Shown: positions 3,846 to 63,710 of the stretch, one piece after another
How positions within the stretch are numbered: the first letter of the stretch is position 1
Layout: each line of letters starts with the position of its first letter
DNA from: Acidimicrobiia bacterium
Lineage (GTDB): Bacteria > Actinomycetota > Acidimicrobiia > Spongiisociales > ZC4RG35
Assembly (NCBI GenBank): GCA_965215185.1
Contig: OZ244034.1
Location: forward strand, 192,001-256,000
Reading direction: 5' to 3'
DNA length: 64,000 bases
The notes under the pieces: generated by a model
Told to the model about the DNA's origin: nothing
The model's input: only the letters and a program-made list of their open reading frames with translations
Database searches by the model: none
Translations under genes and position numbers: made by a program

Positions 3846-3988
3846 CTTTCCTGATGGCAGCCAGGACTCTTGGCGGTACACCAAGAAAGGTTTCGCTTTC
3901 GAGTTTGGCCCTCACCCTGAGCGGGTGATCGAGCGCAAGACAGGCGCAAACCCGCCGGTCCCTTGTGAAGGGATTCGGTCGTTTCTGT

Positions 3989-47710: not shown

Positions 47711-47922
47711 TCTCGCGGCTTACGGGCAAAGGTGAGCGGAGCGAGTGCGGTTGGGTTGCTAAGGTGTCCTGTTTCTGAGATGTAGCGACACCTCGGGTTA
47801 ATACCGGGCTCGGGGGGTTCGGCGGTGCATCCTGTTGCTTGAGCATCGGCGAGAACCGCACTTTCGGATTACCCCAAAAACCGCACGAACCGAGCAGCTC
47901 GCACACCCGACAGGAACACGCT

Positions 47923-47955
47923 TGACGACGGATACTATCCCAATATCTTTCGTAA
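47923..47955. other. Putative recombination site A: TGACGACGGATAC-tatccca-ATATCTTTCGTAA
   Basis: 13-7-13 imperfect inverted repeat at the same position relative to the integrase fragment as site B is to the intact integrase. Confidence 0.65.
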
Positions 47956-47972
47956 GCGGTTGCTAAAGCGTC

Positions 47973-48138
47973 GATCTAGCTGGGGGTTTGGTCCTAGGAT
48001 CCATGCATGAACCATGTTGAATATCTTTTGTATGAGGGGGTGTGTGCTGTGAATAGCCGAGTGGTGGCCCTGGCCGACTACCGGGGAACACCACGACTGC
48101 GGTCGGCGGTGGAAGCGTTCTTCTCGGACAAACAACTT
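47973..48138 (+). pseudogene. Truncated second copy of the tyrosine recombinase leader and N-terminus
   Basis: Encodes AVNSRVVALADYRGTPRLRSAVEAFFSDKQL, identical to the N-terminus of 53472..54398. DNA is an inverted, diverged copy of about 54300-54465, cut by the ISL3 end. Confidence 0.9.
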
Positions 48139-50784
48139 GAGGCTTCGCGATATGTTGGGATTTGGGTAGGGAGGGGCTCTGGAGTTGCCCCGTTTTTGTG
48201 GACGGTTTGATGGTCCCCCGGTTTCTTGGAGTCAGCTCACTTGGATCAGTGGAGTGACGGTTCGGTTGTCGTCGTAGTGTATTTTCTCGTATTCGATGGG
48301 GGTGTGCATCTGTAGGGCGGTGTGGCGCCGCTGCCGGTTGTGGAAGATCTCCACGTACTCGAAGATAGCGTTGGCGAGTTCGATACGGGTCCGCCAGCGT
48401 CGCCGGTCCAACAGTTCAACCTGCATACGAGCCCAGAACGACTCCATTGTGGCGTTATCGAAACAATCCCCGACGGTTCCCATCGACGGTACCAGTCCGG
48501 ATTCGAGGGCCCGTTGGGTGAACGCCCAGGAGGTGAATTGGGTGCCCTGGTCCGAATGTATAACCGTGCCGGGATCGGGTTGGCGGTTCCCGATTGCCAT
48601 TCCCAACGCCGAGGTGACCAGTCCCGAGGTCGCCGAGTTATCGATCGACCAGCCCACGACCCGGCGACTGAACACGTCCAGCACCACAGCACAGTACACC
48701 TTGCCTTCCCGGGTGGGATGTTCTGTGATATCGGTCACCCACAGTTGGTCCGGTTCGAAACGGGCGAAGTTGCGGTCGACCAGGTCCACTGGCGTGTCTG
48801 CGTGGCGGGTCCGCCGTCTCGGGGTGCGGTCACCTACTAAGACCAGCTAGACCAGCTCTGCGCATCAGCATCGCTACTGCGTTGTGTCCTACGGTTATTC
48901 CATGACCCAATCTCAGTTCGGCGTGCACCCGCGGTGCCCCATACGTGCCGCGTGACTGTTCATGGATGTGGTGGATGACGTCGGTCAACCAGGCGTGGCG
49001 GATGCAACGGGCTGACGGCGGTCGGGACCTCCAGGCGTAGAACCCGGACTCTGACACTCCGAGCACTCGGCACGCCACCTGGGTGGGAAGCCGTTCGGTT
49101 CTCATGGTCCCGGATCACGGCGTAGCGTCTTTTGGGGACACCACTTGGTCTCCCAGCAGTTCAATAGCTCGCTTGGTCACGGCCAGTTCGGTTTCCAGAT
49201 CGACGATCCGACGGCGAGCGGCGCGCAGTTCGGCCTGTTCCTCCGAAGTGGCGCCGGGTTGTAGACCGCGGTCGATTCGGTCTTGACGCCGCCAGTTGTA
49301 GATCGTCTGATCAGACACCCCGAGATCCGCTGACAACGACGCTACCGACCTACCAACTGCCAGCAGATCGAGCACCCTGCGGCGAAACTCGGGGGGATAT
49401 CGATAAGGCATGAAGACTCCTTTCGGGTCAGTCATACCACCAATTCAAATAACCCGACTCCACGAAAGTGGGGTACCACCAGGGGTTGAGGCCTCGCTGG
49501 AATTGGCGGTGTAAGCATTGCCTATCCAGGAGGCCTCAATGAGTTTCGATGTTATGAGGGTGCGGTTGCACCTGCGTGGTGTTCGTGTGACCGGTGTGGA
49601 AGTGGACACCCCCGCAGAGTTGGTGGTGGGGGTGGTTTCTGTCAGGAAGTTGTCATCGTGCCCGTTTTGTGGGCTTTCTTGCCAGCAGGTGCATGACCGT
49701 CGCCGCAGGGAGATCCGCGATCTGGAGCACGGCGGCCGCTCGACGGTGGTGCTATGGACCCAGCGGCGGTTCGTGTGCGGTGCTTGTGGGAAACGGCACA
49801 TGGAAAACCATCCCCAGTTCGAAGGCAGTATTACCCGGCGGCTGGCCCGGCGGCTGGTCCAAGACGCTCAGGTGATGCCGATCAGTGCGGTGTCCCGACA
49901 TCATCGGGTGGGGTGGCATCTGGTCATGGGACTGCTCTGTGACTGGTCCGGGCTGGTCGGAGATCATCGTCGCAAACAGTCCTGTCGGGTGTTGCTGATC
50001 GATGAGACATCGATCCGCAAACGGCATCGGTATGTGACCGTGATCCCCTAGCGGTGACACCGGAGAGATGTTGGCGATGATCGAAGGACGCTCCAAAGCT
50101 GCTCTGAGCAGGTTCTTCATAGAACAAGGACCCCGATGGTGCCACAGTGTGCGTACCGTGGTCACCGACGGTTCCCACTCCTACCGGGCAGCCGTCCATC
50201 GCTATCTTCCCGGAGCCCGTCACGTCCTGGACCGGTTCCACGCCGTCCGCTGGTTCGCCCAAGGACTGACCCTGGTACGCAGAGAACTGCAACGCCGCCA
50301 ACCGCCCGGTGTGAAACCCGCCTTCGAACCGGACCTGTTCCGCGCCCGGTTCTGTCTGCTACGCAGAAACGACCACCTCACCGCCGCCGACCGGAAACGC
50401 CTCGAATGGCTATTCGCCGCCCACCCGCGTCTTCGGGTGGCCTGGGACGCTCTACAAGAGCTCTACGGCCTCTATCAGGCCGACGATCTCCAAGGCGCCC
50501 TGGACGCTCTCCAACGCTTCGCCGACCTCTACGAAACCGGCCAGATTCCCGAGTACCACAACACCGTGGACACCATATTGAACTGGTCAGACGAAATCCT
50601 GAACTGGCACCACAGCCGCCGTTCCAACGGACCCCTCGAAGGCACCAACAACCTAATCCAAACCCTCCGCAGAACCGCCCACGGCTTCACAAACCCCCAA
50701 AACTACGCCGCCCGAGGACTCCTCCTAACATGAACCCCACCACCAACCAGCCAGACCACAATCCCACGAATTCGCGAAGGGCCC
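48139..50784 (+). mobile_element. ISL3-family element; transposase 49539..50733 frameshifted near 50047; interrupted by IS3
   Basis: Zn finger CPFC...RRFVC..C, IDE, V.TD, DRFH, SNGPLEG.NN.I..L.R.AHGF.N..NY. Ends CTTCGCGATATGTTGGGATT and AATCCCACGAATTCGCGAAG are inverted repeats. Confidence 0.85.
48208..49481 (-). mobile_element. IS3-family element (orfA 49115..49435; orfB 48232..49105 with an extra frameshift)
   Basis: TG...CA ends with IRs TGATGGTCCCCCGGTTTCTTGGAGTC and TGGTGGTACCCCACTTTCGTGGAGTC. DDE motifs WVTDIT, HSDQGTQF, DNA..ESF. CCCCAAAA slippage site. Confidence 0.9.
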
Positions 50785-50811
50785 AACATCTAGGGTCTTA
50801 CACTGAAGGGC

Positions 50812-51297
50812 ATGGATGTCTTAAAGTCGGTCATCGTAGATCATCTAATCGAGACTGGCCACCAATCGCGATACAACAATGCGTTTGCTCGTCGGTTCCG
50901 CTCTTACCACTCGGGGATGTTGTGGGGGCTGTCTGCTCTCGGCATAGTGGAGATTGTCTTAGTGGTGATAGAGGTACCAGCAGTGACTCTTACCATCGTG
51001 CCAGCGGTGATGGCCGCTATGGCTGGATGGCTGGAAAGAGCGGACTTGCAGGCGAAAGCCGTCACCCTCTCGAATTTGGCGGGCGACTATCAAATCATCG
51101 AGACGGATCTATGGAGATTGTGGCATGGCACCGACGATGACAATGCCGGACACACCCTAGCAACTGTGGAAACCCAGTTCAAGATTCTGAACGCCAAAGC
51201 CTCCTCTAACAGAATCTCTGTTCAGAGCACCATCAGCAAACGATCCCTTGAGAACACACTGAAGGTTCTTGAGGATCGGGGCATCAGCGTTTCTTAG
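50812..51297 (+). CDS. Two-TM helical protein, SLATT-like
   Basis: N-terminal helix (..RY..FARRF..YH), two adjacent hydrophobic helices, then AKA..L..L...Y..IE.DL..LW helical tail. Confidence 0.5.
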   Translation: MDVLKSVIVDHLIETGHQSRYNNAFARRFRSYHSGMLWGLSALGIVEIVLVVIEVPAVTLTIVPAVMAAMAGWLERADLQAKAVTLSNLAGDYQIIETDLWRLWHGTDDDNAGHTLATVETQFKILNAKASSNRISVQSTISKRSLENTLKVLEDRGISVS

Positions 51298-51559
51298 GCG
51301 GAGGAGACGGCTTATCTCGCCTCGCGGGTCGTACTGGACGATCAGGTTTATCACGTCGTAGCGGGCGCCGGTCCCTCTGTGGAGGCGGAGAGGGTTCTCT
51401 GCGTTTCCTCTCAGTCAGGTCTGGTCTTGGGGGGTGGGAGGTGCTGTCTGGGGTCAGGATTGTCTCGATCTCCCGACGGAGGCATTGTGCACGTTCTTGT
51501 ACATCACGAGGTAGTTCGGTGTCTGTGATGGTCATCGCAACCATGATACCAAAGGCGGG

Positions 51560-52378
51560 TCAGTTCGTGATGGGTCCGCACTTCCCTAACTGCTCCTTCA
51601 CAAAGTCGTACTCGCCCTGGTCCATAGTGGCCTTCCAGTCCTCCTTGACAGCCACATGGATGTACAGATACTGACACCACCCCGGATAGTTCACCCTCTG
51701 TGGAGAAGCCGCATCCTCGGTGTTCCACCACTCCAGAGGATCATGGGCACCTTTGGATTGATCAACCGACGCGGCGATGGTCCACAGGTTGTAGGCGTCC
51801 AGGAGGATGCCGGGTTCGCGCACGCCCGAGCACCACGCCTCTCCAATGGACACGACGAAATCCGCGTCTAGCACCTGTCGTTGATGTTGATGGCTCAGGT
51901 AGCCAACATCATGCTTCCACAACGACCAATAGGGCAGGTTGTCGTCCCAATAGCCGGTAGCTGGTGGCCACCCGTCGCAGTTCTCGGGTGCTATTTGAAT
52001 ATTGGAAAGCCGCCGCAACCCATCCCTACCGGGATTCAGAGTGGCGTTGGGTGTGTAATAGGTGACGCCGTCGATCACGGTGGTGGTTGTGGTGGTGGGA
52101 CCGGGTGTTGGTGCGGTGGATCTGACGGGTGGCGCTTCTCCGGTCTGCTGGGCATAGCGGTACAGAAACGTGACGATCTGAGCTCGGGTCACCGGCTGAT
52201 CCGGGCAGAACCTGTCCGTGGCGCACCCCCGGGTGATCCCGTTCTCTACTGCCCATGCGATGGCGTCTTCTGCGTAGTGCCCAGGGGGCACATCGGTGAA
52301 CGGGTTGGCGGCTCTGGCTAGGACCACGCCGCCGGTCAGCCCGAGAGCAAACGCTAGGACGATAAGCAGTTTTCTCAT
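51560..52378 (-). CDS. Secreted SLH-domain protein with a DUF1524/HNH-like C-terminal domain
   Basis: Signal peptide; FTDVPPGHYA..AI.WA...GIT.G...FCPD..VTRAQ SLH; PT linker; LDADFVV...EAW.SG...NL....SVDQSKG..DP.EW...CQY....VAVK..W. Confidence 0.75.
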   Translation of the reverse strand: MRKLLIVLAFALGLTGGVVLARAANPFTDVPPGHYAEDAIAWAVENGITRGCATDRFCPDQPVTRAQIVTFLYRYAQQTGEAPPVRSTAPTPGPTTTTTTVIDGVTYYTPNATLNPGRDGLRRLSNIQIAPENCDGWPPATGYWDDNLPYWSLWKHDVGYLSHQHQRQVLDADFVVSIGEAWCSGVREPGILLDAYNLWTIAASVDQSKGAHDPLEWWNTEDAASPQRVNYPGWCQYLYIHVAVKEDWKATMDQGEYDFVKEQLGKCGPITN

Positions 52379-52383
52379 GTCAC

Positions 52384-52783
52384 TCAGCACGTAAAGCTCT
52401 TAAAGGATACGAACGGTTTGGAATACCCCGTGAGAGTCGCCACATTGCGCCCCGCTTTCAGATTGACCCACTCGTTGATACGGTCAACTTGGAACCCCTC
52501 CTCGTCATAGAACCGCACCTCGAAGTAGACATCATCTTCGTCCCCGCCCCAGTCAAGTTCAAGGCGGCATGACACCTCCCAGTATCCGCCTGCAAAGTCG
52601 TCATCTATCACTTTGCACCGTTCCTCGAAAAACTCGGGGGACTGATGTTGTGGAGGCGGTGGCTCGGGTGGTGATCGGGCTGTCTGTTTCGACAATTGCT
52701 TGTGCGTCCGAGCCGAGTTCTTCCAGTGCTGTGCATCCAGTGAGCAACAGGAAGAGCAAAGCCATCGCGATGGCCTTGCTCAT
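52384..52783 (-). pseudogene. Lipoprotein, frameshifted near 52635
   Basis: MSKAIAMALLFLLLTGC lipobox in one frame; C-terminal domain (FEERCKV...FYDEEGFQV) in another, switching at the C5/T5 tracts. Confidence 0.6.
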
Positions 52784-52803
52784 GGTTGTTGTCCTTTCTC
52801 GGG

Positions 52804-52992
52804 TTAGGCGCAGTAGACGAAGGCTAGCAGGAGCGTCCCGATCAGCCCGATACCCATGAGGAAGTTGGCGAATTGATGAATTCCCCAAGCGACCTTGCCT
52901 GTGGCTGGTTTGCGAGCGCCGCACTTGGGGCAGGCTTTCGCTGATCGGGACACCTCGGTCTGGCAGTCACGGCAGGTAGGTGGCGGCAGCAT
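52804..52992 (-). CDS. Zinc-ribbon membrane protein
   Basis: CRDC..EVS..A.ACPKCG plus a C-terminal TM helix. Confidence 0.7.
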   Translation of the reverse strand: MLPPPTCRDCQTEVSRSAKACPKCGARKPATGKVAWGIHQFANFLMGIGLIGTLLLAFVYCA

Positions 52993-53059
52993 ACGACCTC
53001 ATGGGAGCCTTGATTTCACAACTTTGGATGTCCTGTCGACGCCCCGCCAGTGGTGCTGA

Positions 53060-53332
53060 CCCTTTTCAGGTCACGGTGGACGGATATTCGTTTCTCGGAG
53101 ACCAACGAGTCGCGCCGACGTCTTCGCAGGCATTCGTCGCCATGTGGTTCGACCCGTCCATGAATCATGTATACACCGAAGGAATCAAACCGGCTATCCA
53201 ACACGCTGGTTACGAACCTCTGCGCATAGACCGCACCGAGACATCAACAAGATCCACGACGAGATTATCAGAGAACTCTGACGCTGGTTGTAGTTGCTGA
53301 TTTCACGTCCGGCTCGGGTGGAGCGCGAGGGG
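53060..53332 (+). pseudogene. Fragment of a nucleoside deoxyribosyltransferase/TIR-like domain gene
   Basis: SSQAFVAMWFD.SM..VY..GIKPAI..AGYEPLRID, then in shifted frames INKIHDEII and VVADFT...GARG; truncated. Confidence 0.7.
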
Positions 53333-53471
53333 TGGGTGGGTTAGTGGAACTATGCGAGATTGCCGACGTTGTGGAGGGCGGTGTGGTAGGCGTGGCCATG
53401 GACATCGGACGGGGAGGCGCAGTAAAGCATGTGCGCCGTGGTTGCGGTTCTTCGATCCTAGGAGCCATTGT

Positions 53472-54398
53472 TCATCTCGGTAACCGTTGTTTGTCAAATG
53501 TGGATGTGAGTTCCGCGATGGCTTCGTTTCCTGGTTTGGTGTATATGGCGAGTGTGCGTGGGTCTTGGTGTCGGCTTTTGGCTTGGAGCAGGATGGTGGA
53601 GGCCCCTTTCTCGCCGAGGTGGGTGAGTGAGGAGTGGCGGAGTTGGTGCAGTGTCCACCCCCCGGTGGTTTGTTTGTAGATGGTGGAAGCCCGCTCGTAG
53701 GACAGTCTTCCCCGGCCGGTGTGGGGGCATTCGTCTCCTCGGGCGGGGATGACGTTGGGTCGCCGGTGGGTTAGAAACACAGGTCCTCGACGGCGGCCGG
53801 CCAAATACCGTGATAGAAGCCGTGCGGTGCCGGATGCCCAGAAGACGTATTCTTTGTGGCCGCCTTTGCCGATGATGACTGCCCGCTTGCGGGGAAGGTC
53901 AAGATCCTCCACGTTGAGCGCGAGGATTTCCCCGGCCCGGGCGGCTGTTTCGTACAGCATCTTCCACAGGGTTTTTTCTCGCAGGTCTATGTCTCTTCGG
54001 GACCATAGATTTTCGAGGTCTTGGTAGGGGATGGCTTTGGTCTGGTCGCGGGGCTTCCGGCGGCGTACTACCAGTGTCATCGGGTCGTGGTCTATCCATT
54101 TGTTGCGTTGGCAGTAGGAAACGAACGACTGGAGGGCGGTGATTCGGGTGTTCCAGGTGGCGGGTTGAGCGGACCCCCACCGTTGCTGGAAGACCTCTAG
54201 AACATGGCGGGGGTCCAGTTGGTCAACGGAAAGGTCCATGCCAAGATCCTCGATTACGGCCGATAGCGCTTGGCCATATGCCCGCCGGGTGTTGGCTGAG
54301 AGTTGCTTGTCGGAGAAGAACGCTTCCACCGCCGACCGCAGTCGTGGTGTTCCCCGGTAGTCGGCTAATGCCACGACCCGGCTGTTCACAGCATGCAC
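53472..54398 (-). CDS. Tyrosine recombinase / site-specific integrase
   Basis: N-terminal SANTRRAY SAM-like domain. Catalytic R (YETAAR), K (GKGG), HQLRH, H (SRH) and Y (LAIY) are all intact. Confidence 0.93.
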   Translation of the reverse strand: MHAVNSRVVALADYRGTPRLRSAVEAFFSDKQLSANTRRAYGQALSAVIEDLGMDLSVDQLDPRHVLEVFQQRWGSAQPATWNTRITALQSFVSYCQRNKWIDHDPMTLVVRRRKPRDQTKAIPYQDLENLWSRRDIDLREKTLWKMLYETAARAGEILALNVEDLDLPRKRAVIIGKGGHKEYVFWASGTARLLSRYLAGRRRGPVFLTHRRPNVIPARGDECPHTGRGRLSYERASTIYKQTTGGWTLHQLRHSSLTHLGEKGASTILLQAKSRHQDPRTLAIYTKPGNEAIAELTSTFDKQRLPR

Positions 54399-54482
54399 TC
54401 CCGGTTATGAAAGATATTCAACATGGTTCATGCGCGGATCCTAGGACCAAACCACCAGCTAGATCCACGTATTACCGGCCGG

Positions 54483-54515
54483 TTACGACAGATACTCCAT
54501 AAATATCAGCCGCTA
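54483..54515. other. Putative recombination site B: TTACGACAGATAC-tccataa-ATATCAGCCGCTA
   Basis: About 85 bp upstream of the integrase; 17-bp core identical to site C. Confidence 0.7.
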
Positions 54516-54919
54516 TGTGTATGCAGGAGGGGAATGTGGGTTTCAGAAGCAGGACCGGGATCGTCATAAAGTGTCTGGGGTGACGTGTTTTGGGAATCCA
54601 GTTGGTTGGCTGTTCGGTAAGGGAGGGTGGTATTAACACCGGAGCCGTGGTCGGTCAGGGGCGTTGTGTGTCCACCGGTCATATTGAGAGCGGGCAATGG
54701 CACCGGAGGGTCGGGCCTCTCGGCTCGGCCAGCCTTCTTCTGGTCAGGCCGCTATAGGTGGGGCCACCGATGGCTTGGGGTCAAAGCGCGATGTCAAAGC
54801 CTGTTTCGGGGTGGCAGTGGTCGCGGAAGGGCCTGTTAACCCCCGGCCGGTTCTCAGCAACAGGGCCGAACAGAGGTCCCTCATGTCCTGTATTGGTGGG
54901 TGGTGGAGGTCCGTTCTGG

Positions 54920-57859
54920 TTAGGGGCTTGTTGGTAGGGCTGTTTCTAGAGTGCGGAGGGAATCGAGGAAGTTGTAGTGGTCGTAGAACGTTCGAGCTTG
55001 TTGCACTAGAGCGGTCTGTTCATCCGTGAGTTCCATGGCGGCGAGTTGCGCGAATAGTTTGTCGGAGTTGGCTTGCATCGTTTGCATTTCGTAGTAGAGG
55101 TCTTGTGCTAATAGGAATTGCTTCAACTCCGTTTCGGTATCGAACCCGGCTGACAGTGTTTGCCCTTCTTTGAGTCTCTCGATTTGATGGGCGAAGGCTG
55201 TTTCTGGGTGGTAGCTCGCCAGATCCCGGTCCCATAACGCTTCCTGGTCCTCCCACGTGAACAAGGGATCGATATGTTGAAAGAATGTTTCGATGTCCCC
55301 GGCCTCAAGTTCCAGGCCTCTGTTCTGGTTTATGAAGTCGGCGGTGATCTGCCATCCATCGATCCTGGTTTGCGGGTCTTCTAGGTAAGCCATCGTCCGG
55401 TACCCCACCGAAAGCAGACGGAACATGGTGTCCCGGTTCTTTTCTACCCATTCCCGGTTGGCCAACAGTCCTGTGCCACCTACTGTTGTGCTGGCTATCG
55501 CTGCCGGCCGGGAAACAGCGTCGTGTTCGAAGATCATCGCATAGCTGATCAGCGGATCCCAGCCGTTGCGGATCAACTCGACAGCAGTCAGAGCCCCTAA
55601 AGGCATGGCGAACTCGACTCTGCCTGGAACCTTGGAATCTTGGGCGATAGTGGGGTCATCGAGGTACCGTGGGTTGGCGTAATAACGCCAGTCCCGGCTG
55701 GTGATGTATATCGGCTGGGGATTGCCATCGGCGTCCAACACCGGCGAGCCATCATAGTTCATCAGGACTGGGTTGTTGCCGTCAGCGTCCAAGGCCAGTT
55801 GATGGGGCTGTTCGTTCTGCCACCACTCGGGCAGATAAGCAAAAAACGCGTCCGCGTACTGCGCTTGGGTAGTGCTGTGGGGCGGCATGTGGACTGTCTT
55901 CCCCAACAGTTGGCGCACAGCCGCTTGGGCCGCTTCGGGAAAGGACATCCCTTCTGACATGAACTCCAAGGCGGTCTTAGCATCGCTGTCCGGCGCCACA
56001 AGAATCAGGTACCCGATGTAGATGTCCTGGAAGAGAATCGGCGGATAGTTCTGACCGTCGCGTTCCAGGAGTCCGAACACTCCGGGCACCCAGGCGGTTG
56101 CAACATCCAATTGGTCCCGTTGGAGAGCAGGGACGATCTCCGCCGACGTAGAGAAGAGGTGCCCCCCCTCGGGCGCGATGGTTATTCCAAGTTCTTCGAA
56201 CCAGCCTTTCTCTATGGGAATCTGCAAGAACGCAAGATCAGCGCAACAGGGATAAATCCCCATACGAATCGTCCCCGAGTCAGAGGTGGTGTCGGAAGAG
56301 TCGCTGGGGGTGCCTCCTAGGAGGTTGACGGTGCGGTAGAGGAAGGTAACGATCTGAGCGCGGGTTATTGTCCCGTCTGGACCAAAGAGACCTGCACCGA
56401 TTCCAGAGGTTATCCCGTTTGTGAAGGCCCAACCTATCGCTTCGTCGGCCTCGTGTTCCCTAGGGACATCATCGAAGAAGTCGGATCCTCCGCCGAGTCT
56501 GCGGGATGACCATGCCTGTGTTGACAAGTCGTCCTCGGAGCTGTTGTTGGTGATTCGAAGCCGGTTGGTGCCGTCAGCGTTCATTGTGTAGATTTCAAAG
56601 TTGCCGACGTGGCCTTGATCACTTCGGAAAGCGATTTGGGTTCCGTCCGGCGACCAACTGGGACGGCGGTGGTTAGCGAAATCATCGGTAAGTTGGTGCT
56701 CGTTGGTCCCATCGGTGTCCATCACCAAGATTTGCCAACCCCTGCCCCGGTCACTTTGGAAGGCGATTTGGGTTCCGTCCGGCGACCAACTCGATGCCCA
56801 GTCGATGTGGGTGTTGTTGGTGAGTTGGCGAACGTTGGTCCCATCGGCGTTCATCACATAGATTTCCATGTCCCCGTCTCGGTCACTATTGAAAGCGATT
56901 TGGGTTCCGTCCGGCGACCAACTCGCCTGTCCGTCACGGTAGGTGTTGTTGGTGAGTTGGCGAACGTTGGTCCCATCCGTGCTCATCACATAGATTTCCA
57001 GGTCGAAGTCTCGGTCACTTTGGAAGGCGATTTGGGTTCCGTCCGGCGACCATCTCGGCGCCTCGTCATAACTAGGATGGTTGGTGAGTTGGCGTACGTT
57101 GGTACCGTCGGCGTTCATTACAAAGATCTCAGCCAGGTCCCCAGCCCGGTTACTAGCGAAGGCGATTTGGGTTCCGTCCGGTGACCAACTCGGTAACAGG
57201 TCATTGTAGGTGTTGTTGGTGAGTTGGCGTACGTTGGTACCGTCGGCGTTCAACACAGTCCCGTCAGCGTTTGTCACGAAGATCTCGTGGTCCCCGTCCT
57301 GGTTGTTGGTGAAGAGTATGGCACCATCTGGATCCGTTGTTGTCGTCACCGGTCTGCCTTGGATCAGGTTGACCGTGCGTTGGATGAAAGTGACCATCTC
57401 CGCGCGGCTTACGGTCCCATCCAGGTTGAAGGTTCTACCGTCGACTCCACTCACGACCCCGTTAGAGACTGCCCATCCGATCTCCTCGTCCGCCCAGTGC
57501 CCAGCAGGAACATCATCAAACAGTTGGGATCCCAGAACAGAGACAGGAGTGTTCTGCAGAAGGTTGATCGTGCGGAAGAGGAAAGTGAAAATCTGTGCGC
57601 GAGTGACGATTCCGTTCAGGTCAAATCGACCCTCACCCACTCCAACAGTGATGCTGTTCGCCACCGCCCATCCGATCTCTTCGTCCGCCCAGTGCCCAGC
57701 AGGAACGTCATCGAAAGTATCAGACCCTTTAGGGTCTTCCGTCTGAGCGATGGTTGTTCCACCCAATGACACCACCATCGCGATCGCTATCAGAACAACA
57801 ATGACGTTCCCGGGGCTGGCAAAATGTGCTCTTTCATTATCTCTCTTTAGACCAAACAT
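54920..57859 (-). CDS. Surface protein: SLH modules + TolB-like (PD40) beta-propeller + NMT1/SsuA-like substrate-binding domain
   Basis: Three FDDVP..H.ADE.IGWA...G SLH blocks; five WSPDGTQIAF.S repeats; C-terminal IRMGIYPCCAD...EKGWFEELGI SBP-like domain. Confidence 0.85.
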   Translation of the reverse strand: MFGLKRDNERAHFASPGNVIVVLIAIAMVVSLGGTTIAQTEDPKGSDTFDDVPAGHWADEEIGWAVANSITVGVGEGRFDLNGIVTRAQIFTFLFRTINLLQNTPVSVLGSQLFDDVPAGHWADEEIGWAVSNGVVSGVDGRTFNLDGTVSRAEMVTFIQRTVNLIQGRPVTTTTDPDGAILFTNNQDGDHEIFVTNADGTVLNADGTNVRQLTNNTYNDLLPSWSPDGTQIAFASNRAGDLAEIFVMNADGTNVRQLTNHPSYDEAPRWSPDGTQIAFQSDRDFDLEIYVMSTDGTNVRQLTNNTYRDGQASWSPDGTQIAFNSDRDGDMEIYVMNADGTNVRQLTNNTHIDWASSWSPDGTQIAFQSDRGRGWQILVMDTDGTNEHQLTDDFANHRRPSWSPDGTQIAFRSDQGHVGNFEIYTMNADGTNRLRITNNSSEDDLSTQAWSSRRLGGGSDFFDDVPREHEADEAIGWAFTNGITSGIGAGLFGPDGTITRAQIVTFLYRTVNLLGGTPSDSSDTTSDSGTIRMGIYPCCADLAFLQIPIEKGWFEELGITIAPEGGHLFSTSAEIVPALQRDQLDVATAWVPGVFGLLERDGQNYPPILFQDIYIGYLILVAPDSDAKTALEFMSEGMSFPEAAQAAVRQLLGKTVHMPPHSTTQAQYADAFFAYLPEWWQNEQPHQLALDADGNNPVLMNYDGSPVLDADGNPQPIYITSRDWRYYANPRYLDDPTIAQDSKVPGRVEFAMPLGALTAVELIRNGWDPLISYAMIFEHDAVSRPAAIASTTVGGTGLLANREWVEKNRDTMFRLLSVGYRTMAYLEDPQTRIDGWQITADFINQNRGLELEAGDIETFFQHIDPLFTWEDQEALWDRDLASYHPETAFAHQIERLKEGQTLSAGFDTETELKQFLLAQDLYYEMQTMQANSDKLFAQLAAMELTDEQTALVQQARTFYDHYNFLDSLRTLETALPTSP
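56575..57260 (-). repeat. About 132-bp tandem repeats encoding PD40 blades
   Basis: GCGATTTGGGTTCCGTCCGG(C/T)GACCA recurs near 56631, 56764, 56896, 57027 and 57162. Confidence 0.9.
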
Positions 57860-57989
57860 ATGCAGGAGTCCCAGCCTTCCATCGTATATTGTGACCTAAG
57901 CGTAGAAACGCCTTAGGTTGCACCTATAGGAAAAGCGATATCAATTTGTATTATCCTGGATGCTACATCTGTCCCCTTTGGGAGGCGAT

Positions 57990-58490
57990 AATGAGGCCTG
58001 GATGAAGGAGCGTTTGGGGCTGCGGGTGGTTTTGCCGTCGCTGGTGTGCTTCGGTTCAGTCGGTGGCGGATGGGTTGCCCGGAGGAGGCTAGGGGTGGTG
58101 CGAGCGGGCAAACCGAGCGAAGGGTGCTTCGTTGCGACATCGGCCTGGATGAGACAAGACGATGTACACTTGGGAAGGCGGTGATGGGTCCTATTCCTGG
58201 CTGGTCCAATAGGCGGCGGGGCAACAGAGTTGACCAGTTCGGCGATGGATGCTTTGAGGGCTTGGGAAGGGCAAGACCATCAACAGAACTCGTGATTGAG
58301 TGGGGAGACGGGACTCGGGACACCATTTTGAGTGGGGTCGTCCTCGGTGATGTCCCCTACCCGCACCGGTAGTCGCAGCCAACTCAATCCCGGGAGAGTC
58401 AGTTCCGCGCCGGTCCTGGGTGTGCTTGGTGAGCACACGGATGCGTCTGGCCAGGCTGTGGAGCGCCTGTTTGGTGGCGGTGAGTACGTT
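57990..58490 (-). mobile_element. Degraded IS110-family transposase remnant
   Basis: Fragments across frames: LHSLARRIRVL, LLDQPGIGPITA, PLASSGQPIRHRLNR. Confidence 0.65.
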
Positions 58491-58526
58491 CATGGGTGAC
58501 CGCCCTCTTCGGGACATTACCGTAGG

Positions 58527-58559
58527 CTACGACTGATACTCCATAAATATCTGTTGTGA
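58527..58559. other. Putative recombination site C: CTACGACTGATAC-tccataa-ATATCTGTTGTGA
   Basis: Direct repeat of site B (TACGAC.GATACTCCATAAATATC). IS remnants on both sides end at or near it. Confidence 0.7.
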
Positions 58560-58848
58560 TGAGTGCCCGCCGCAGGCAGGTCAACCCCTCTCGTTCCTCC
58601 GATGCCAAACATAGGAGATCGACCCTCATTAATCTCGGCCTGGGTCACCCACCGTCGCAGACCGGAACTGGAAGTCCCAACCGGCGAGCAACAACAGACA
58701 GCACTTTCTCCCTCTCCCGAAGCAAATCCACTGCTCGACGGTGGAACTCCTCCGGATAGGCAGCCGGATCACAACCTCCTTGCCAAAGAGCCCAAACCGG
58801 CTCTTGCACGATCACAGAGTACGTGCCCAGAAAACGGAGGAACTCCAA
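58560..58848 (-). mobile_element. IS3-family left end and orfA remnant, truncated at site C
   Basis: IR-like TGGAGTTCCTCCGTTTTCTGGGCAC; PAAYPEEFHRRAVDL...VARRLG, WVTQAEI, SEERE.L..LRR. Confidence 0.65.
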
Positions 58849-59163
58849 CAACCGACTGTGGGGGCTGTGGAGTGGAGGAAGTCCAGGTTGATGGTTCCTT
58901 GTTTGGGGAACCGGGTGGTGGGGAGGGGGGTTCTTCTGAGAAGGACAGCAGTGACACTGTTTGAGCCTTCTGATGGTTCTGGTGTGGAGGGCGCTGGTGG
59001 GGTGCCTCAGACAGTGTTGTTCAGGTCAAACCTGATGCGGGAGCCCGCAGGCCTAGCCACTACCGAGGTCAGTTTCTGCTTGAGCGTCGGTACTATGGAG
59101 GCGCACCCCGGCTATTTGACCGCTCGGGCAGCCTACTGTTCACGTTGCTAGGTCGGCCTCTAG

Positions 59164-60135
59164 ATGGATCGCAAATCTATGAAGGTTATTGAGATTGGAA
59201 CTCTTGATCGCATCGCGGTGCGTGAGGTATGGCCGCAGGAGGCCGGGGATTTCACGCCATGGCTTGCAGAGAACGTCGAACTAATAAGTGAGGCAATGGG
59301 GATGGACCTTGAACTTGTGGGTCAAGAAGTCTCAGTCGGCAAATACAGCGCCGATCTGGTGCTGAAAGAGGTCTCTTCTGGTGCTGTGGTGGTTGTTGAG
59401 AACATGTACGGCCAGACGGATCATGACCACATCGGCAAGCTCATCACCTATGCGGCTGGCCTGGACGCGAGTTACGCGGTGCTATTGGCCGAGAACTTCC
59501 GTCCCGAGCACCGCTCAGCGCTCAATTGGCTGAACTCGATCTCAACTGAGGACTGCGGCTTTTTTGGTCTCGGTCTAGAAACATGGCGTATCGGTGATTC
59601 GAGCCCGGCGCCGCAGTTGCGGATTGATGTGCAACCCGACGACTGGACCAAGAGCGTCAGAGCGACAAAGGGCCGGCAGGACAGCCAGCGTGAAACGCTA
59701 TTCAGACGGTTCTGGGCTGAGATGCAGTCGAGCTTCAGAGCAGACAGCACAGACTGGGCAGGAAGAGGCAAGCCGTCAAAAGAGGCGTGGATGCCCTTCA
59801 AGTCGCGCAAAGGCGTCCAGTTCATTGTCACATTCTGCAAACCGGGCAATGTCCCGGCTTTCCGTGCCGAGGCATATATCGACACAGGGGACAAGGAAAG
59901 CACAGCCAAGCTGTATGAGGCTCTTGAGGCAAGACGAACTGAGATCGATACCGCATTTGGCAAAGAACTCGAATGGTCAAGGTTGGAGAAGCGTCGGGCT
60001 TCCCGCGTCAGTACCTACTATCCGCAACCGATCGGGATCGAGGACGAGGACCACTGGCCGCAAGCCCGGGCCTGGGCAGTGTCCGCACTCGGTGGCCTAC
60101 GTGCGGCTATTGAACCGGTACTTGACGATCTGTAG
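59164..60135 (+). CDS. DUF4268-domain protein with N-terminal PD-(D/E)XK nuclease-like domain
   Basis: REVWP.EA.DFTPWL, E.SVG.YSADL...VVVEN....TDHDH.GKLITYAAG, FR.EHR.AL.WLN; C-terminal EI...FG.EL.W..L..RRASR. Confidence 0.85.
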   Translation: MDRKSMKVIEIGTLDRIAVREVWPQEAGDFTPWLAENVELISEAMGMDLELVGQEVSVGKYSADLVLKEVSSGAVVVVENMYGQTDHDHIGKLITYAAGLDASYAVLLAENFRPEHRSALNWLNSISTEDCGFFGLGLETWRIGDSSPAPQLRIDVQPDDWTKSVRATKGRQDSQRETLFRRFWAEMQSSFRADSTDWAGRGKPSKEAWMPFKSRKGVQFIVTFCKPGNVPAFRAEAYIDTGDKESTAKLYEALEARRTEIDTAFGKELEWSRLEKRRASRVSTYYPQPIGIEDEDHWPQARAWAVSALGGLRAAIEPVLDDL

Positions 60136-60221
60136 GTCGGCTCAACTGGATTAATGCCGGCACCAGCGGTGATCACAGCACCGTCACCTCCACCCGACTA
60201 GAACAGTCTCCTTCTTCCCCG

Positions 60222-60254
60222 ATGTGACGGATACTCTGGGAATATCCGTCATTT
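60222..60254. other. Putative recombination site D: ATGTGACGGATAC-tctggga-ATATCCGTCATTT
   Basis: TGACGGATA/TATCCGTCA perfect arms with the same GATAC-N7-ATATC core as sites A-C. Confidence 0.55.
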
Positions 60255-60736
60255 GTGCTAGGTCTCTACACACTGCCCTGGTGTTGAGGACGTGACCCAA
60301 ATCAGGACAGCAAATACTGTGGAGCCAGTCATGGTCCGCCTATGAAACTCTTACAGTGTTGCTCTTTGTTGCCACGGTCGTACCCTTGGCTGAGGTGACG
60401 GGCTGGATCGATTGGCGCAGGTGCAGTCTTTTGCAGCGGCCACAACGCCTCGCAGCGATTCTGGTGTTGGTGAGCGTCACTTGTGGTACGCATGACTGAC
60501 CGGCCGTCTAGTGCGGATCACAGGTCCGGCTTGTAAGCGTCGAACTGACAAGCGGATGGTTGCCACAGGGAGAATTCACAGGCGAGAACATCACCAGTCC
60601 GATTCTCGCGCTGCGACGTGGCCCACCGAATGCTTGGTATACGAATCCCTTCTGCGCTGTGACATTACCCTGAGCGTTTGACCGGCGTTACGAAACTGCG
60701 GAGATATTCCTGAGTTCCTCAACCCCGCGACGATCT

Positions 60737-61315
60737 CTATCGCTGGGCGCGCTTCTTCCTAATGAGAGCCTGGTTCTGCCTTACCACACCGGTAACGCTC
60801 AATCTGTACCGGGCCATCTTTTCGCTGACACCGTACTTCTTGGCTACATCTTTCGCTCCTGACCCCTTACGGACTTCCGCCAAGAGCAACGCTCTGGGCA
60901 GAAGGAGGCATCCAGACAACCAGCCAGCCTCTTCCTCCTGAGTCAGGTCACAAGAAAGAAAGGTGATATCGCCAAGCCGCTCAACACGGCTCAAATTGTG
61001 GTCGAGGAGAACATGTGCTAGTTCGTGGGCGACATCGCTCCTCTGGCGCGACTTTGCCGATAGAGGGTTGTATACAACGACCGCTCGATCAGGCGAAGGC
61101 TGAAGCGTGCATGCAGAGAAGGAATTGGGCTGGATGTTTTCGAGTTCGTTGAAACGTTCTCGCGGTATCAACTCGTCTCCCGCTCGGACCTCAATACCCA
61201 GCAGCTTCGCAAGAGCTTCAGGCTCAACGGACTGAGCGGCCTTCATCCCCAGTTCCGTTCGCACATCCCTTGCGATTCTCTCCGCTTCGGACTTAAACCC
61301 TCTGCGCAGGGCCAT
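60737..61315 (-). CDS. ImmA/IrrE-family metallopeptidase
   Basis: RRGFKSEAE, RQRSDVAHELAH (HExxH), QEEEA.WL.G.LLLPR. Confidence 0.92.
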   Translation of the reverse strand: MALRRGFKSEAERIARDVRTELGMKAAQSVEPEALAKLLGIEVRAGDELIPRERFNELENIQPNSFSACTLQPSPDRAVVVYNPLSAKSRQRSDVAHELAHVLLDHNLSRVERLGDITFLSCDLTQEEEAGWLSGCLLLPRALLLAEVRKGSGAKDVAKKYGVSEKMARYRLSVTGVVRQNQALIRKKRAQR

Positions 61316-61772
61316 GAGCGGCCTCCTCCATGAGGGCTTGATTCAGATCGCTCAGCAAAGCCCCTAGAGCGCGGGCCGCGTCAGGGCGGAAGGTCTTCGC
61401 AGCCCGCAGGTGTACAGCAGCGATCTCCTGGGGGCGCGCCAGAGCCTGGTAGAGGTCGCCGACGATGCCTGCGATCCGTTCCGCGGCTTCAGGGGGGAGG
61501 TTGCGGTCTGCACGCAGGTGCTCAGCGATTACATCGGGGGTCGCAGTTGCCTTCTGCTGAATTTCAAAGAATTGATTGATATCGGCGCCGCACCACTCGA
61601 CAAGGCGCTTGAATTTAGGAAGGTCTGGTACGTGTCCCTTCTCGACCCGTGCCAGAGTATTGAAGGGGATTCCTAGGGCAAAAGCGGCTTCTCGGAGGCT
61701 CATCCCTCTCCGGTTTCGCTCGGCTAGGACAAGGCGGCCTAGGTCGCTGAGTTCAAGCTTGCCTGCGTTCAT
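61293..61772 (-). CDS. XRE-family HTH repressor
   Basis: R.RRGMSLREAA..LGI...TL.RVEKG..PD HTH and a HLRADRNL...A...IA segment; overlaps the peptidase start. Confidence 0.9.
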   Translation of the reverse strand: MNAGKLELSDLGRLVLAERNRRGMSLREAAFALGIPFNTLARVEKGHVPDLPKFKRLVEWCGADINQFFEIQQKATATPDVIAEHLRADRNLPPEAAERIAGIVGDLYQALARPQEIAAVHLRAAKTFRPDAARALGALLSDLNQALMEEAAHGPAQRV

Positions 61773-61790
61773 CCATTTTGCCCCTTGTGC

Positions 61791-61874
61791 GTATACTGGT
61801 ACAGTGTACTGATAGTGATCGACAAGGCGTCGGTCACAGTACCGCAAATGGTACTTTGAAGGTTCTTTGGAACC
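61791..61874. promoter_or_regulatory. Palindromic candidate operators in the divergent promoter
   Basis: GTATACT-ggtac-AGTGTAC (61791-61809), AGTACC-gcaaat-GGTACT (61838-61855), GGTTC-tttg-GAACC (61861-61874). Confidence 0.5.
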
Positions 61875-61892
61875 TAGAAAGGAGTCTGGACA

Positions 61893-62162
61893 ATGGTTGC
61901 AGACAAAGACAAAGTCACGATTGTCGTGAACGGGAGAAAGAGGGTAGTCCCTTCAAAAGATCTCTCCTCTGATGGAGAGATCTCCTTCAAGCGGGTCGTT
62001 AGCCTAGCGTTCGACCCACCGCCCTTCGGTCCATACATCGTGTTCACGGTGAGTTACCGGAACAGTGCGGGGAGGCCGCCAGACGGAAGGCTGATTGCGG
62101 GCCAGAGTGTGAAGATCCAGGACGGGACTGTTTTCAATGTCTCTTTCACTGATAAGTCGTAG
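61893..62162 (+). CDS. Ubiquitin-like (multiubiquitin / beta-grasp) protein
   Basis: VTIVVNGR...ISF..VV.LAF...FTV.Y...L..GQSVKI.DG.VFNV..TDKS pattern; AAGGAG RBS. Confidence 0.85.
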   Translation: MVADKDKVTIVVNGRKRVVPSKDLSSDGEISFKRVVSLAFDPPPFGPYIVFTVSYRNSAGRPPDGRLIAGQSVKIQDGTVFNVSFTDKS

Positions 62163-63309
62163 CGCCGACCTCAAGCTCCTTGAAGACGAGGGCTACGAAG
62201 TGGAGGTGCGCTCCGACTACCTGCTCTTGAACTCCATCCCCTACGTCACCGAAGCCAGAGCCATCAGGTACGGGACTCTCGTTTCTGAGTTGAGCTTGAC
62301 GGTAGACGCCACCACGATGCCGAGCACGCATGTCGTGATGTTCGCCGGAGAGATGCCTTGCGACCCAAAAGGGCGCCCTTTGACCCAGATCAGTCACTCC
62401 AGTGATAGGCAGGAGCTTGCTGAAGGCTTAGTCGTGAACTACAGCTTCTCAAGCAAACCGCCTGGAGGCTATGCGGACTACTACCAGAAGATGACCACCT
62501 ACGAGGCCATCATTTCCGGGCCAGCCCAGTCGATTGACGCGAGTGTCACCGCTCGAACCTTTTCTGTGGTCGAGGCTCAGGACGAGGACTCCGTGTTCAA
62601 GTACATGGATACAGCGTCGACCCGTGCCCGAATCGGCCCCATAACTGGAAAGCTAAAGATCGGCGCGGTAGCAATCATAGGGCTGGGGGGGACAGGTTCA
62701 TACATACTCGACCTGGTGGCGAAGACACCGGTGAGGGAAATCCACCTGTTCGATGGCGACAAGTTTGGACAGCACAACGCCTTCCGGTCGCCAGGAGCGC
62801 CGTCCATCGAAACGCTGAAGGCCGCACCACAGAAAGCCTCTCATTACAGAGACATTTACTCCGAGATGCGGCGCAACATCGTCGCCCACGGATACGTGGA
62901 TGAATCAGTGGTGGAGCGCCTGCGGGCTATGGACTTCGTCTTCATAGCGGTCGATAAGGGTCGCCCCAGGAGGCTCGTAGTGGAGAAACTGGAGGAATTC
63001 GGCGTGCCGTTCATAGACGTTGGGATGGGCGTGGACGAAGTTGAGGGTTCGCTGCTGGGCCAATTGAGAGTGACTGCGAGCACGGACCGGTCTCGTGACC
63101 AAGTGCGCTCGACACTCCCTATTTCAGACCGCGACGACGAAGACGACTACTCCCGCAACATTCAGATCGCTGATCTCAACGCACTGAACGCGGCTCTGGC
63201 CGTGATCAAGTGGAAGAAACTTTGCGGATTCTATGCCGACCTTGAGAAGGAGCACACGAGCTTGTACCAGATTGACGGCAACTACCTGATCAACGAGGAC
63301 AAGGTGTGA
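62137..63309 (+). CDS. E2-like (DUF6791-type) domain fused to a ThiF/E1 adenylyltransferase
   Basis: N-terminal DL..L..EGY.V......LL...IPY (E2 family E-like), FSSKP..GY.DYY.K. C-terminal IIGLGGTGS, FDGD, HNAFR, PFID.GMG, NIQIADLN. Confidence 0.88.
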   Translation: MSLSLISRSADLKLLEDEGYEVEVRSDYLLLNSIPYVTEARAIRYGTLVSELSLTVDATTMPSTHVVMFAGEMPCDPKGRPLTQISHSSDRQELAEGLVVNYSFSSKPPGGYADYYQKMTTYEAIISGPAQSIDASVTARTFSVVEAQDEDSVFKYMDTASTRARIGPITGKLKIGAVAIIGLGGTGSYILDLVAKTPVREIHLFDGDKFGQHNAFRSPGAPSIETLKAAPQKASHYRDIYSEMRRNIVAHGYVDESVVERLRAMDFVFIAVDKGRPRRLVVEKLEEFGVPFIDVGMGVDEVEGSLLGQLRVTASTDRSRDQVRSTLPISDRDDEDDYSRNIQIADLNALNAALAVIKWKKLCGFYADLEKEHTSLYQIDGNYLINEDKV

Positions 63310-63710
63310 CTCGAATCAACACGCTCCGACACGAGTTTGTTGAATACATCCCAGATGCAGTGAATGAGGGCGTGTTGTACGTGTCCATGCCCTTCGCCAC
63401 AGTCGTGCACCGGTGTTGCTGTAGGTGTGGAAGCGAGGTGGTGACACCGCTGGATCCCAGCGACTGGGAGATGACGTTCGACGGGAAGTCCATCTCCCTC
63501 TACCCGTCGATTGGAAACTGGAGCCTAGCCTGCCAATCCCACTATTGGATCCATCGCAACCAGGTCCGGTGGGCTCGACGCCTCTCGACATTTGAAATCA
63601 AGAAAGGCCGAGCCATCGACCGTATTAAGAAGGCATGGCTCCCCGGCTGTAAGTGGCAGTCTCTTTGGCGGGTGTTATCCAGGCGGTTCAGGCGAATGAC
63701 TAGGGGCTAG
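63306..63710 (+). CDS. DUF6527 family protein (putative Ubl peptidase)
   Basis: FVEYIP.....G.LYVS..F....H.CCC.CG..V.TPL...W...SL.PSIGNW...C.SHYWI; GTGA overlap with the E1 gene. Confidence 0.85.
   Translation: MTRINTLRHEFVEYIPDAVNEGVLYVSMPFATVVHRCCCRCGSEVVTPLDPSDWEMTFDGKSISLYPSIGNWSLACQSHYWIHRNQVRWARRLSTFEIKKGRAIDRIKKAWLPGCKWQSLWRVLSRRFRRMTRG

Follow-up and report, generated by a model that had tools for sequence, protein, structure and literature searches.

A dedicated Xer-like recombinase and its palindromic sites as a probable system for module exchange in Acidimicrobiia

The 64,000-nucleotide (nt) stretch of an Acidimicrobiia bacterium genome analysed here (contig OZ244034.1, positions 192,001 to 256,000; hereafter the window) contains four 33-bp palindromes, designated sites A to D, and a gene, int308, encoding an Xer-like tyrosine recombinase next to one of them. 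Comparison with related genomes indicates that int308 and its sites probably form a dedicated system for exchanging gene modules by site-specific recombination, akin in function to integron cassettes and to dif modules and identical with neither. The initial annotation, made from the letters of the window alone, had suggested a gene-capture system at this locus, and that reading is supported by the comparative sequence evidence presented below. A literature search returned no description of this system.

Core sites of the window and the recombinase gene

The four sites reported in the initial annotation, GATAC-N7-ATATC set in imperfect inverted arms, were all recovered by pattern search of the window (at 47931, 54491, 58535 and 60230), every one on the + strand. 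Dinucleotide-preserving shuffles gave a mean of 0.03 matches per window, and none of 100 shuffles reached four. Each match is the centre of an imperfect 33-bp palindrome, 8 nt being added on either side. The core so defined consists of two 14-nt inverted arms and a 5-nt centre, with the genome-wide consensus TTATGACnGATAyT-N5-ArTATCnGTCATAA, and would be described as 13-7-13 if cleavage occurred 1 base inside each arm. All of the palindromes are intergenic and AT-rich, in a genome that is GC-rich. None belongs to a tRNA gene; no tRNA gene was found in the window, and no Rfam family was found between 44 and 64 kb. The cores and the recombinase gene are located as follows.

47923..47955, unstranded: core of site A, centre ATCCC (class II), accessory sequences on its right (inner) side; identified by pattern and palindrome
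53472..54398, - strand: int308, a 308-residue Xer-like tyrosine recombinase with a SAM-like N-terminal domain and a catalytic domain; identified by Pfam and structure match
54483..54515, unstranded: core of site B, centre CCATA (class I), recombinase-proximal; identified by pattern and palindrome
58527..58559, unstranded: core of site C, centre CCATA, identical to B and in direct orientation; the CTAG motif and third arm described below are absent
60222..60254, unstranded: core of site D, centre CTGGG, between the 3' ends of two convergent genes

Along the array the centres run ATCCC, CCATA, CCATA, CTGGG, with B and C being the only matching pair in the window. Small open reading frames (ORFs) that start beside the sites were considered as a possible conserved gene family and were rejected, as their translations look like chance frames in GC-rich DNA; these ORFs are mutually unrelated except via shared flanks.

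Inspection of the int308 polypeptide revealed matches to Phage_integrase (Pfam, E 4.5e-17) and to a SAM-like N-terminal domain (E 1.3e-6), with the catalytic residues R154, H251, R254, H277 and Y286 in place, which assigns it to the tyrosine recombinase superfamily. The best match among solved structures was XerD (1a0p), with an E value of 2.7e-15 over residues 19-297. Scores against the equivalog models were 97 bits for XerC (cut-off 335), 88 bits for XerD (cut-off 330) and 31 bits for XerS (cut-off 267). The earlier view that the enzyme lacks IntI traits and that the sites are not attC-like was corroborated: the integron integrase model TIGR02249 (NCBIfam) gave 42.4 bits against a cut-off of 265 and covered residues 27-193 only, the match to the IntI4 structure was confined to residues 249-288, and the sites are 33-bp palindromes of double-strand type. 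More than 3400 proteins matched int308 at E <= 1e-10, and among the names listed only 'tyrosine-type recombinase/integrase' or 'integrase' appeared. Two distant Xer-like genes, 25-26% identical to int308, are present elsewhere in the genome.

Distribution of the sites and homology breaks between genomes

In what follows, G000 is the genome of the window (3.12 Mb, a single contig), other G labels denote genomes of relatives, and L labels denote fetched loci. The relaxed core GATAYT-N5-ARTATC occurs in 15 copies in G000, compared with none for the reversed control, which bears out the prediction that the motif exceeds background. A position weight matrix (PWM) built from these 15 cores added two weaker copies, giving 17 sites in all. 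Called sites scored 21.6-46.8, compared with a best score of 13.2 across three shuffled genomes. A decayed fifth site, which had been suspected in the window at 60688-60718, was discarded; its best PWM score was -27, against 32-47 for real sites, and a single GATATT half-motif is all that is present. The sites are clustered in three or four islands: four lie in the window, nine at 861-926 kb, one at 1471 kb, one at 1591 kb and two at 2495-2505 kb. The second of these islands (861-926 kb) adjoins tRNA-Pro and tRNA-Met genes. Closely spaced cores were observed at 9750 and 9892 of L018 (142 nt apart) and at genome positions 911551 and 911983 (432 nt), and such pairs may be empty or minimal modules.

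A search with the 25-nt core, allowing up to two mismatches, was made across 41 genomes, comprising 17 of the genus and 24 of other genera in the family or order. The core was present in five of the 17 genus genomes (15 copies in G000, 13 in G002, 10 in G011, seven in G007 and two in G004) and absent from the other 12 and from all 24 outside the genus; the control pattern gave one match in one genome. The same few centre sequences recur in four species. When metagenomes were scanned with the 25-nt core pattern, 71 stretches were returned. Sixty-three of these were set aside as unrelated, mostly low-GC DNA with a single match and without int308, consistent with chance for a collection of that size. 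The remaining eight belong to relatives of G007, and one of them (L070) shows a full recombinase-bearing unit.

Linkage of the motif to this integrase family, which the initial annotation had proposed as a check, was found for every full-length homologue in the genus. Full-length int308 homologues (59-91% identity, E <= 1e-20) occur within the genus in G000, G002, G007 and G011 only, and a site lies 90-115 nt (about 95 nt) upstream of the start codon of all 11 (one in G000, three in G011, four in G002 and three in G007). At the same threshold G012 and G015 hold short fragments only, and int308 was not found in 11 of the 16 other genus genomes. G000 contains eight int308 matches, pseudogenes included. 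An upstream site also accompanies a frameshifted paralogue of 53% identity at 1470 kb, the truncated copy at site A and one G002 fragment, and is absent from 5'-truncated pseudogene copies. The copies in sister species are 82-91% identical and open, with the exception of one that has an early stop. Outside the genus, a 68%-identical homologue (L016) is accompanied by the same core and the same third arm. Two identical int308 pseudogenes, at genome positions 3353-4211 (L009) and 2996699-2997557 (L008), are 76-82% identical to the gene, lack its first five codons and the upstream site, and run through three successive frames; a copy in G011 (2007248-2008106) matches the same three query ranges.

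Within any one array the cores all share one orientation, as seen in the window and in L010, L012, L018 and L029. Breakpoints between genomes, which had been expected to fall at the sites, were found inside the palindrome. An MMPL-family transporter module at genome positions 922242-926248 is 98.3% identical over 4007 nt to positions 16855-20859 of L011, from G011. In both genomes the module ends no more than 13 nt from a site centre on either side, and it is surrounded by unrelated DNA (18 and 31% identity). At the right end, identity is 100% through the left arm and is lost from the first variable centre base onward, and homology at the left end begins at the centre. The baselines for G000 and G011 are 89% identity for a core-genome stretch and 86% for int308 regions. 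The identity of the module relative to that of the core-genome stretch, in combination with its different neighbours, points to recent movement.

Similar behaviour was observed elsewhere. Genome positions 911970-915632 are 97% identical to positions 6106-9765 of L029, and the homology begins inside a site in both genomes. The int308 homology block shared with G011 stops 10 nt past the centre of site B. Twelve flank families pair up differently at different sites, with homology that starts no more than 25 nt from the site edge (1-2 nt in pairs within G000) and on one side only. The arrays of the window and of G011 share a common framework, made up of a ThiF locus on one side, a CTGGG-type core, a CCATA-type core beside int308 and an ATCCC-type core, and differ in the DNA between the cores.

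The recombinase-bearing unit and the cargo of the modules

Sequences flanking the cores were surveyed at 50 sites from G000 and the fetched loci, some of which are near-duplicates. A CTA[GC][CT]-type motif at flank position 20-21 was present on one side of 28 sites, on both sides of one and on neither side of 21, compared with a background of 2.9% per 18-nt window. The CTAG-containing motif is placed ~37 nt from the core centre, on the gene side only. Twenty-one of the 50 sites have the arm sequence once more on the CTAG side, as a third copy oriented like the nearer arm and starting 79-81 nt from the centre. This third arm was found at every recombinase-proximal site, that of L016 included, just upstream of the start codon. 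It was also found at five class II sites (centre GGGAT/ATCCC; L010 14933, L012 13053, L020 15418, L030 4837 and L070 7871), which lie downstream of the gene at a distance of 3-7 kb and have accessory parts directed toward it, and at none of the cargo-only sites among the 50.

The presence of the third arm at both proximal and class II sites implies that int308 belongs to a unit with the order core(CCATA)-accessory-int308-cargo-accessory-core(ATCCC). In such a unit, 2-6 kb of cargo beside the recombinase gene is enclosed by a full site at each end, with the accessory parts directed inward. The unit measures 5.0 kb in L010, 3.2 kb in L012, 4.2 kb in L018 and 7.1 kb in L070. In the window it extends over 6.6 kb, from B to A, being inflated by two insertion sequences (IS) inside it. 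The initial annotation had placed A and B upstream of two integrase starts, which is correct, and had treated them as equivalent boundaries between cassettes, which did not hold; they are instead the two ends of a 3-7-kb recombinase unit with inward accessory sequences. The parts of this unit in the window, and the accessory flank of site D, are listed here.

47976..48033, + strand: accessory part of site A, with CTAG at 47976-47979 and a third arm copy at 48020-48033 that starts 81 nt from the centre
48040..48147, + strand: first 36 codons of a second, truncated copy of the recombinase gene, with 91.7% identity to the intact copy; tblastn (genome 240040-240147)
48208..50795: IS3-family element (~48208-49481, genes on the - strand) and ISL3-family element (~49481-50795, + strand) inside the A-B unit; Pfam rve, HTH_Tnp_1 and DDE_Tnp_ISL3, with multi-copy DNA matches in relatives
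51560..52390, - strand: 276-residue SLH-domain protein, cargo of the A-B unit
54405..54462, - strand: accessory part of site B, with the third arm at 54405-54418, 81 nt from the centre and just before the start codon, and CTAG at 54458-54462
60174..60221, unstranded: P-type accessory flank of site D, 40-48 nt, shared with genome sites 922246, 873962, 2504643 and 1590570

A 194-nt inverted repeat of 86% identity (47944-48137 and 54301-54494) spans the site edge, the upstream region and the first 36 integrase codons. The right copy runs into intact int308, and the left ends at 48147, followed by the IS3 and ISL3 elements. No inverted repeat of at least 30 nt was found around the unit in L010, L012 or L018, in which the ~100-nt accessory parts alone are inverted, and these have diverged. 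The class II end of the window is homogenised with its class I end over the 194 nt. In the Logan contigs the one clear joint, from runs X4 and X5, connects 48176 with 49481 through 10 different letters and represents a form without the IS3 copy. The depth of this joint is far greater than that of the unique DNA of the organism, so that it probably comes from other copies or other organisms.

The flank of site D was an addition to the earlier picture of the locus, as the same 40-48 nt elsewhere precede a P4-type integrase gene. This P flank is common to five or six other sites, and at genome position 922246 it continues into a complete gene of that type.

Comparable layouts were encountered in distant relatives. 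Actinobacterial plasmid records with int308 homologues below 60% identity number 169, the best at 41-45%, and are mostly from Streptomyces, Rhodococcus and Nocardia. On a Streptomyces plasmid (L106 3853-3972), a palindrome with 25-nt arms that are 84% complementary and a 5-nt centre lies ~115 nt upstream of the gene, with a further arm-like copy ~70 nt nearer the gene and a mercury-resistance module adjacent. On a Nocardia plasmid (L105 3826-3925), an 11-5-11 palindrome with one extra copy of the right arm lies upstream, and a chromate-resistance module is adjacent. These layouts suggest that the three-armed principle may be wider in Actinomycetota.

The distinct modules that the initial annotation had distinguished between the sites were confirmed, with a PD40 and SLH protein between B and C, a DUF4268/PDC-S11 protein between C and D, and a DUF6791+ThiF locus beyond D.

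54920..57859, - strand: 979-residue PD40 and SLH surface protein, cargo of module B-C; Pfam
59164..60135, + strand: 323-residue DUF4268 protein, full-length match to the PADLOC candidate defence protein PDC-S11 (E 2e-93), module C-D
60737..63710: beyond D, an M78 peptidase (capP-like) and an HTH gene on the - strand, DUF6791+ThiF and DUF6527 genes on the + strand; Pfam and PADLOC

The DUF6791+ThiF protein gave weak E1-E2 matches (E 5e-7). No further site bounds the far side of the locus beyond D. Its ThiF part is 90% identical to DNA of G011 that adjoins the site array of that genome. Five tandem repeats of 132-135 nt, 67-78% identical (56602-57257), correspond to the PD40 repeats of the surface protein.

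Modules are 1.7-4 kb in length, carry genes in either orientation and presumably have their own promoters. SLH-anchored surface proteins recur in many of them, namely in B-C and the A-B unit of the window, beside int308 in L010 and L012, and at genome positions 869-876 kb, 912-916 kb and 2496-2498 kb. Six of the 33 ORFs in the genome with an SLH match lie within 5 kb of a site, compared with 1.3 expected (binomial P 0.0015, in a post hoc test). Other cargo includes the PDC-S11 candidate defence gene, a transporter and a DprA-like protein.

The window array sits in a ~61-kb stretch (genome 239467-300258) at which the close relative G004 has ~14 kb of different, IS-rich DNA. Relative to G004, which is 94% identical in shared genes, G000 has this stretch and a further ~27.5 kb (210370-237886) as extra DNA, the two flanking a conserved hydrolase gene. 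An 84-nt intergenic repeat with neither a tRNA nor an Rfam match (window 47759-47842) lies between the hydrolase gene and site A; four partial copies are present in G000 (78-97%), and 15 matches (86-91%) were listed in G004, G011 and G002. Within module B-C, a fragment of ~200 nt (58048-58258) occurs six more times in the genome (72-82% identity). One of those copies abuts the end of a multi-copy IS, and the fragment is probably an IS-end remnant. The right flank of site C (58566-58847) resembles, at 71-76%, genome positions 1612222-1612507, 1622483-1622719 and 920470-920642. The first two of these copies are inverted and 10 kb apart, and the third lies just past the 3' end of a P4-type integrase gene.

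Proposed mechanism, alternatives and comparison with known systems

The observations can be accommodated by the following model. The 33-bp palindromes would be the recombination cores of int308, and the three-armed site beside the gene would be its regulated 'home' site. Bare cores would act as partner sites, from which modules could be excised and at which they could be inserted and re-sorted. Two compatible cores would recombine to excise the intervening DNA as a circle, which the reverse reaction would insert; by these two reactions modules could be lost, gained and re-sorted within and between genomes. Cores with no accessory part or a short one (C, D and 13 elsewhere in the genome) would divide the island DNA into modules, and the 5-7-nt centre would decide which cores can pair. 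The recurrence of the same few centres in four species suggests compatibility classes. In this model int308 would bind the arms and cut within the core, the third arm would regulate the reaction or the gene, and the system may be active today.

Several observations weigh against this model. Classical tyrosine recombinases require identical overlap regions, and neighbouring centres differ, so that most pairs, including the two ends of the recombinase unit, would not be expected to recombine. Close by is a second integrase family; the P flank, present at six or seven sites, precedes in its full form a P4-type integrase gene, and integrase fragments adjoin sites 897307 and 2504643. L017, with a 70%-identical homologue, has no site in the 290 nt upstream that were examined, and G004 holds two sites with no int308 at E <= 1e-20. 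When six blocks of at least 93% identity were compared between island 2 of G000 and loci of sister species, only three of their 12 ends lay within 21 nt of a site in both genomes; insertion sequences and other events also rearrange the islands. Finally, no site-to-site joint indicative of excision or of a circle was listed among assembled Logan contigs from four runs of one study (depth ~2-9 in unique parts), a check that carries no information on rare excision. Two of these contigs cross site C in the reference order; at sites A, B and D contigs end or branch, which is what repeats would produce.

A more specific proposal, which we regard as tentative and rather unlikely, is that of a natural cassette-exchange system in which one Xer-like recombinase acts on shared arms with mutually incompatible classes of centre, mainly diversifying S-layer-anchored surface proteins and defence genes in these Acidimicrobiia. 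The classes (CCATA, ATCCC, CTGGG, CAGCA, CAGCG and others) would be conserved across species, and a module between two different classes would be held stably while being swappable against DNA with the same pair of classes. The relatives beside metal-resistance modules on plasmids of Streptomyces, Nocardia and Rhodococcus would do likewise.

The cores might alternatively be fossil attachment-site scars, left by serial insertion of int308-type elements at one locus and subsequent decay, in which case the row would be static, with no present exchange. Direct-repeat arrays with a single intact recombinase are what tandem insertion produces, and decay can be seen in the truncated int308 at A with its IS3 and ISL3 elements, the three-frame pseudogenes, the integrase fragments at 897307 and 2504643, and the two sites of G004 without a recombinase. 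Dissimilar centres in adjacent cores would in addition block excision. Tandem insertion at a single site nevertheless predicts identical centres, whereas those observed differ; four species retain intact int308 copies with 82-91% conservation; and an integrase-free 4-kb module is 98.3% identical between genomes whose core stretch is 89% identical, with different neighbours in each. This explanation is considered unlikely. It is very unlikely that the palindrome is instead the operator of a DNA-binding regulator (possibly int308, solely as its own repressor), controls integrase and island genes, and marks module edges solely since gene-cluster edges are where promoters lie. The AT-rich, always intergenic character of the palindromes would suit an operator, as would their occurrence upstream of two integrase families (~100 nt from int308 and ~290 nt from the P4-type gene) and the position of the third arm immediately before the int308 start codon, a place at which binding could alter expression. 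The core centre itself, however, is ~100 nt from that start, upstream of the expected promoter, and the sites are not promoter elements in general, as D and genome site 873962 lie between the 3' ends of convergent genes. Such convergent-end sites, together with intergenomic homology that breaks within the 33 bp, at the centre, do not fit a purely regulatory role, and the re-sorting of flanks at sites and the recurrence of the same few centres across species also count against it.

Two further explanations assign the cores to other enzymes of the same cell. Likewise very unlikely is that some or all of the cores, those with a P flank such as D at the least, are substrates of the arm-binding, P4-type integrases of these islands rather than of int308. 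The P flank does lead into a complete gene (922246) or gene fragments (2504643 and 897307); tRNA-Pro and tRNA-Met genes, a usual setting for such integrases, border island 2; and L012 has two P4-type integrase genes adjoining a site. Against this, other cargo follows the 40-nt flank at five of seven P-flank sites, in L012 the site separates the integrase genes from the P flank, and the arms are the same as those of int308-proximal sites and recur as a third arm only beside int308. Least credible of the explanations considered is that the housekeeping XerC/XerD use the cores as dif-like sites, in the manner of Acinetobacter dif modules. A layout of short inverted arms about a short centre, the Xer-like sequence of int308 and the two distant Xer-like genes in the genome (25-26% identity) are compatible with it, whereas a housekeeping site would be expected in every genome and 12 of 17 genus genomes have no match within two mismatches. 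Furthermore, the sites cluster in islands and track int308, and the cores are directly repeated, in contrast to the alternating C and D dif modules of the available accounts. Their absence from most congeners and their tracking of int308 indicate that the cores are not dif sites of housekeeping Xer proteins.

Integrons and the dif modules of Acinetobacter are well-known movers of single genes or small modules, and module exchange by int308 looks like a third solution to this task, in a little-studied actinobacterial class. If active, the system would account for the exchange of surface-protein and defence genes between species in these genomes, and would provide genome engineering with a compact recombinase and a natural set of orthogonal sites. 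Single-recombinase Xer systems of the XerS/difSL type have one site per chromosome, beside the gene, and serve dimer resolution. The int308 system resembles them in having one Xer-like recombinase with a site beside its own gene, and differs in its 17 sites in islands, its several gene copies and its absence from most congeners. In the accretion of integrative elements, directly repeated att sites are associated with one recombinase-bearing element and with integrase-less modules that can be mobilised in cis. A row of direct sites, one recombinase-coding element and neighbours without a recombinase are likewise seen here; accretion at a single site gives identical cores, however, whereas here the centres differ and the same classes recur across species.

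The attC sites of integrons are long, variable, imperfect palindromes that are recombined as folded single strands, unlike the uniform 33-bp palindromes with a 5-nt centre described here. The likeness to integrons lies in the layout, in that a primary site directly upstream of the recombinase gene is followed by a one-directional array of modules extending away from it (integrons are treated in PMC8876359 and PMC3053210). In the window, B lies ~100 nt upstream of int308 with modules B-C and C-D beyond, and the same holds in L010 and L012. Accessory and defence genes as cargo are a further likeness; the differences are that int308 is not IntI and that its gene lies within a unit bounded by two full sites. 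In Acinetobacter, according to the portions available of the relevant reports, XerC/XerD act at pdif sites and gene modules are shuffled between replicons (PMC13141974, PMC6449649, PMC10132070). As far as those portions describe, the int308 modules are similar in that short Xer-type sites bound gene modules with their own expression signals. They differ in having a dedicated recombinase beside a site, in being chromosomal, in the direct orientation of all sites and in several discrete classes of centre, and the int308 system is found in only five of 17 congeners.

The closest likeness in site layout is to the TnpI/IRS system of Tn4430. In the part of its description available, the IRS core has two 14-bp inverted motifs with a 4-bp spacer and cuts 6 bp apart, two adjacent DR motifs complete a 116-bp site, bind more recombinase and impose resolution selectivity, and bare cores recombine in a relaxed manner to give deletion, inversion and intermolecular products (PMC2847244). 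On that description, both systems combine a small tyrosine recombinase without an arm-binding domain, 14-nt motifs with a short spacer (4 bp in Tn4430 and 5 nt here) and additional motif copies located beside the core, close to the recombinase gene, a likeness in layout. The relaxed behaviour reported for bare Tn4430 cores would fit core-only sites such as C and D. No Tn3-type transposase was detected among the 28 ORFs scanned between 44 and 64 kb of the window or the 28 ORFs of L010 and L012, and the transposases found in these ORFs were of the IS3, ISL3 and IS110 types only. The int308 sites differ from the two-DR arrangement, as far as the latter is described, in having one extra arm at 79-81 nt with an unrelated CTAG motif between, and the system differs in its many sites per genome with different centres. 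What appears to be new, as supported by these sequence comparisons, is a probable form of site-specific module exchange that combines a TnpI-like site layout with a dedicated Xer-like enzyme.

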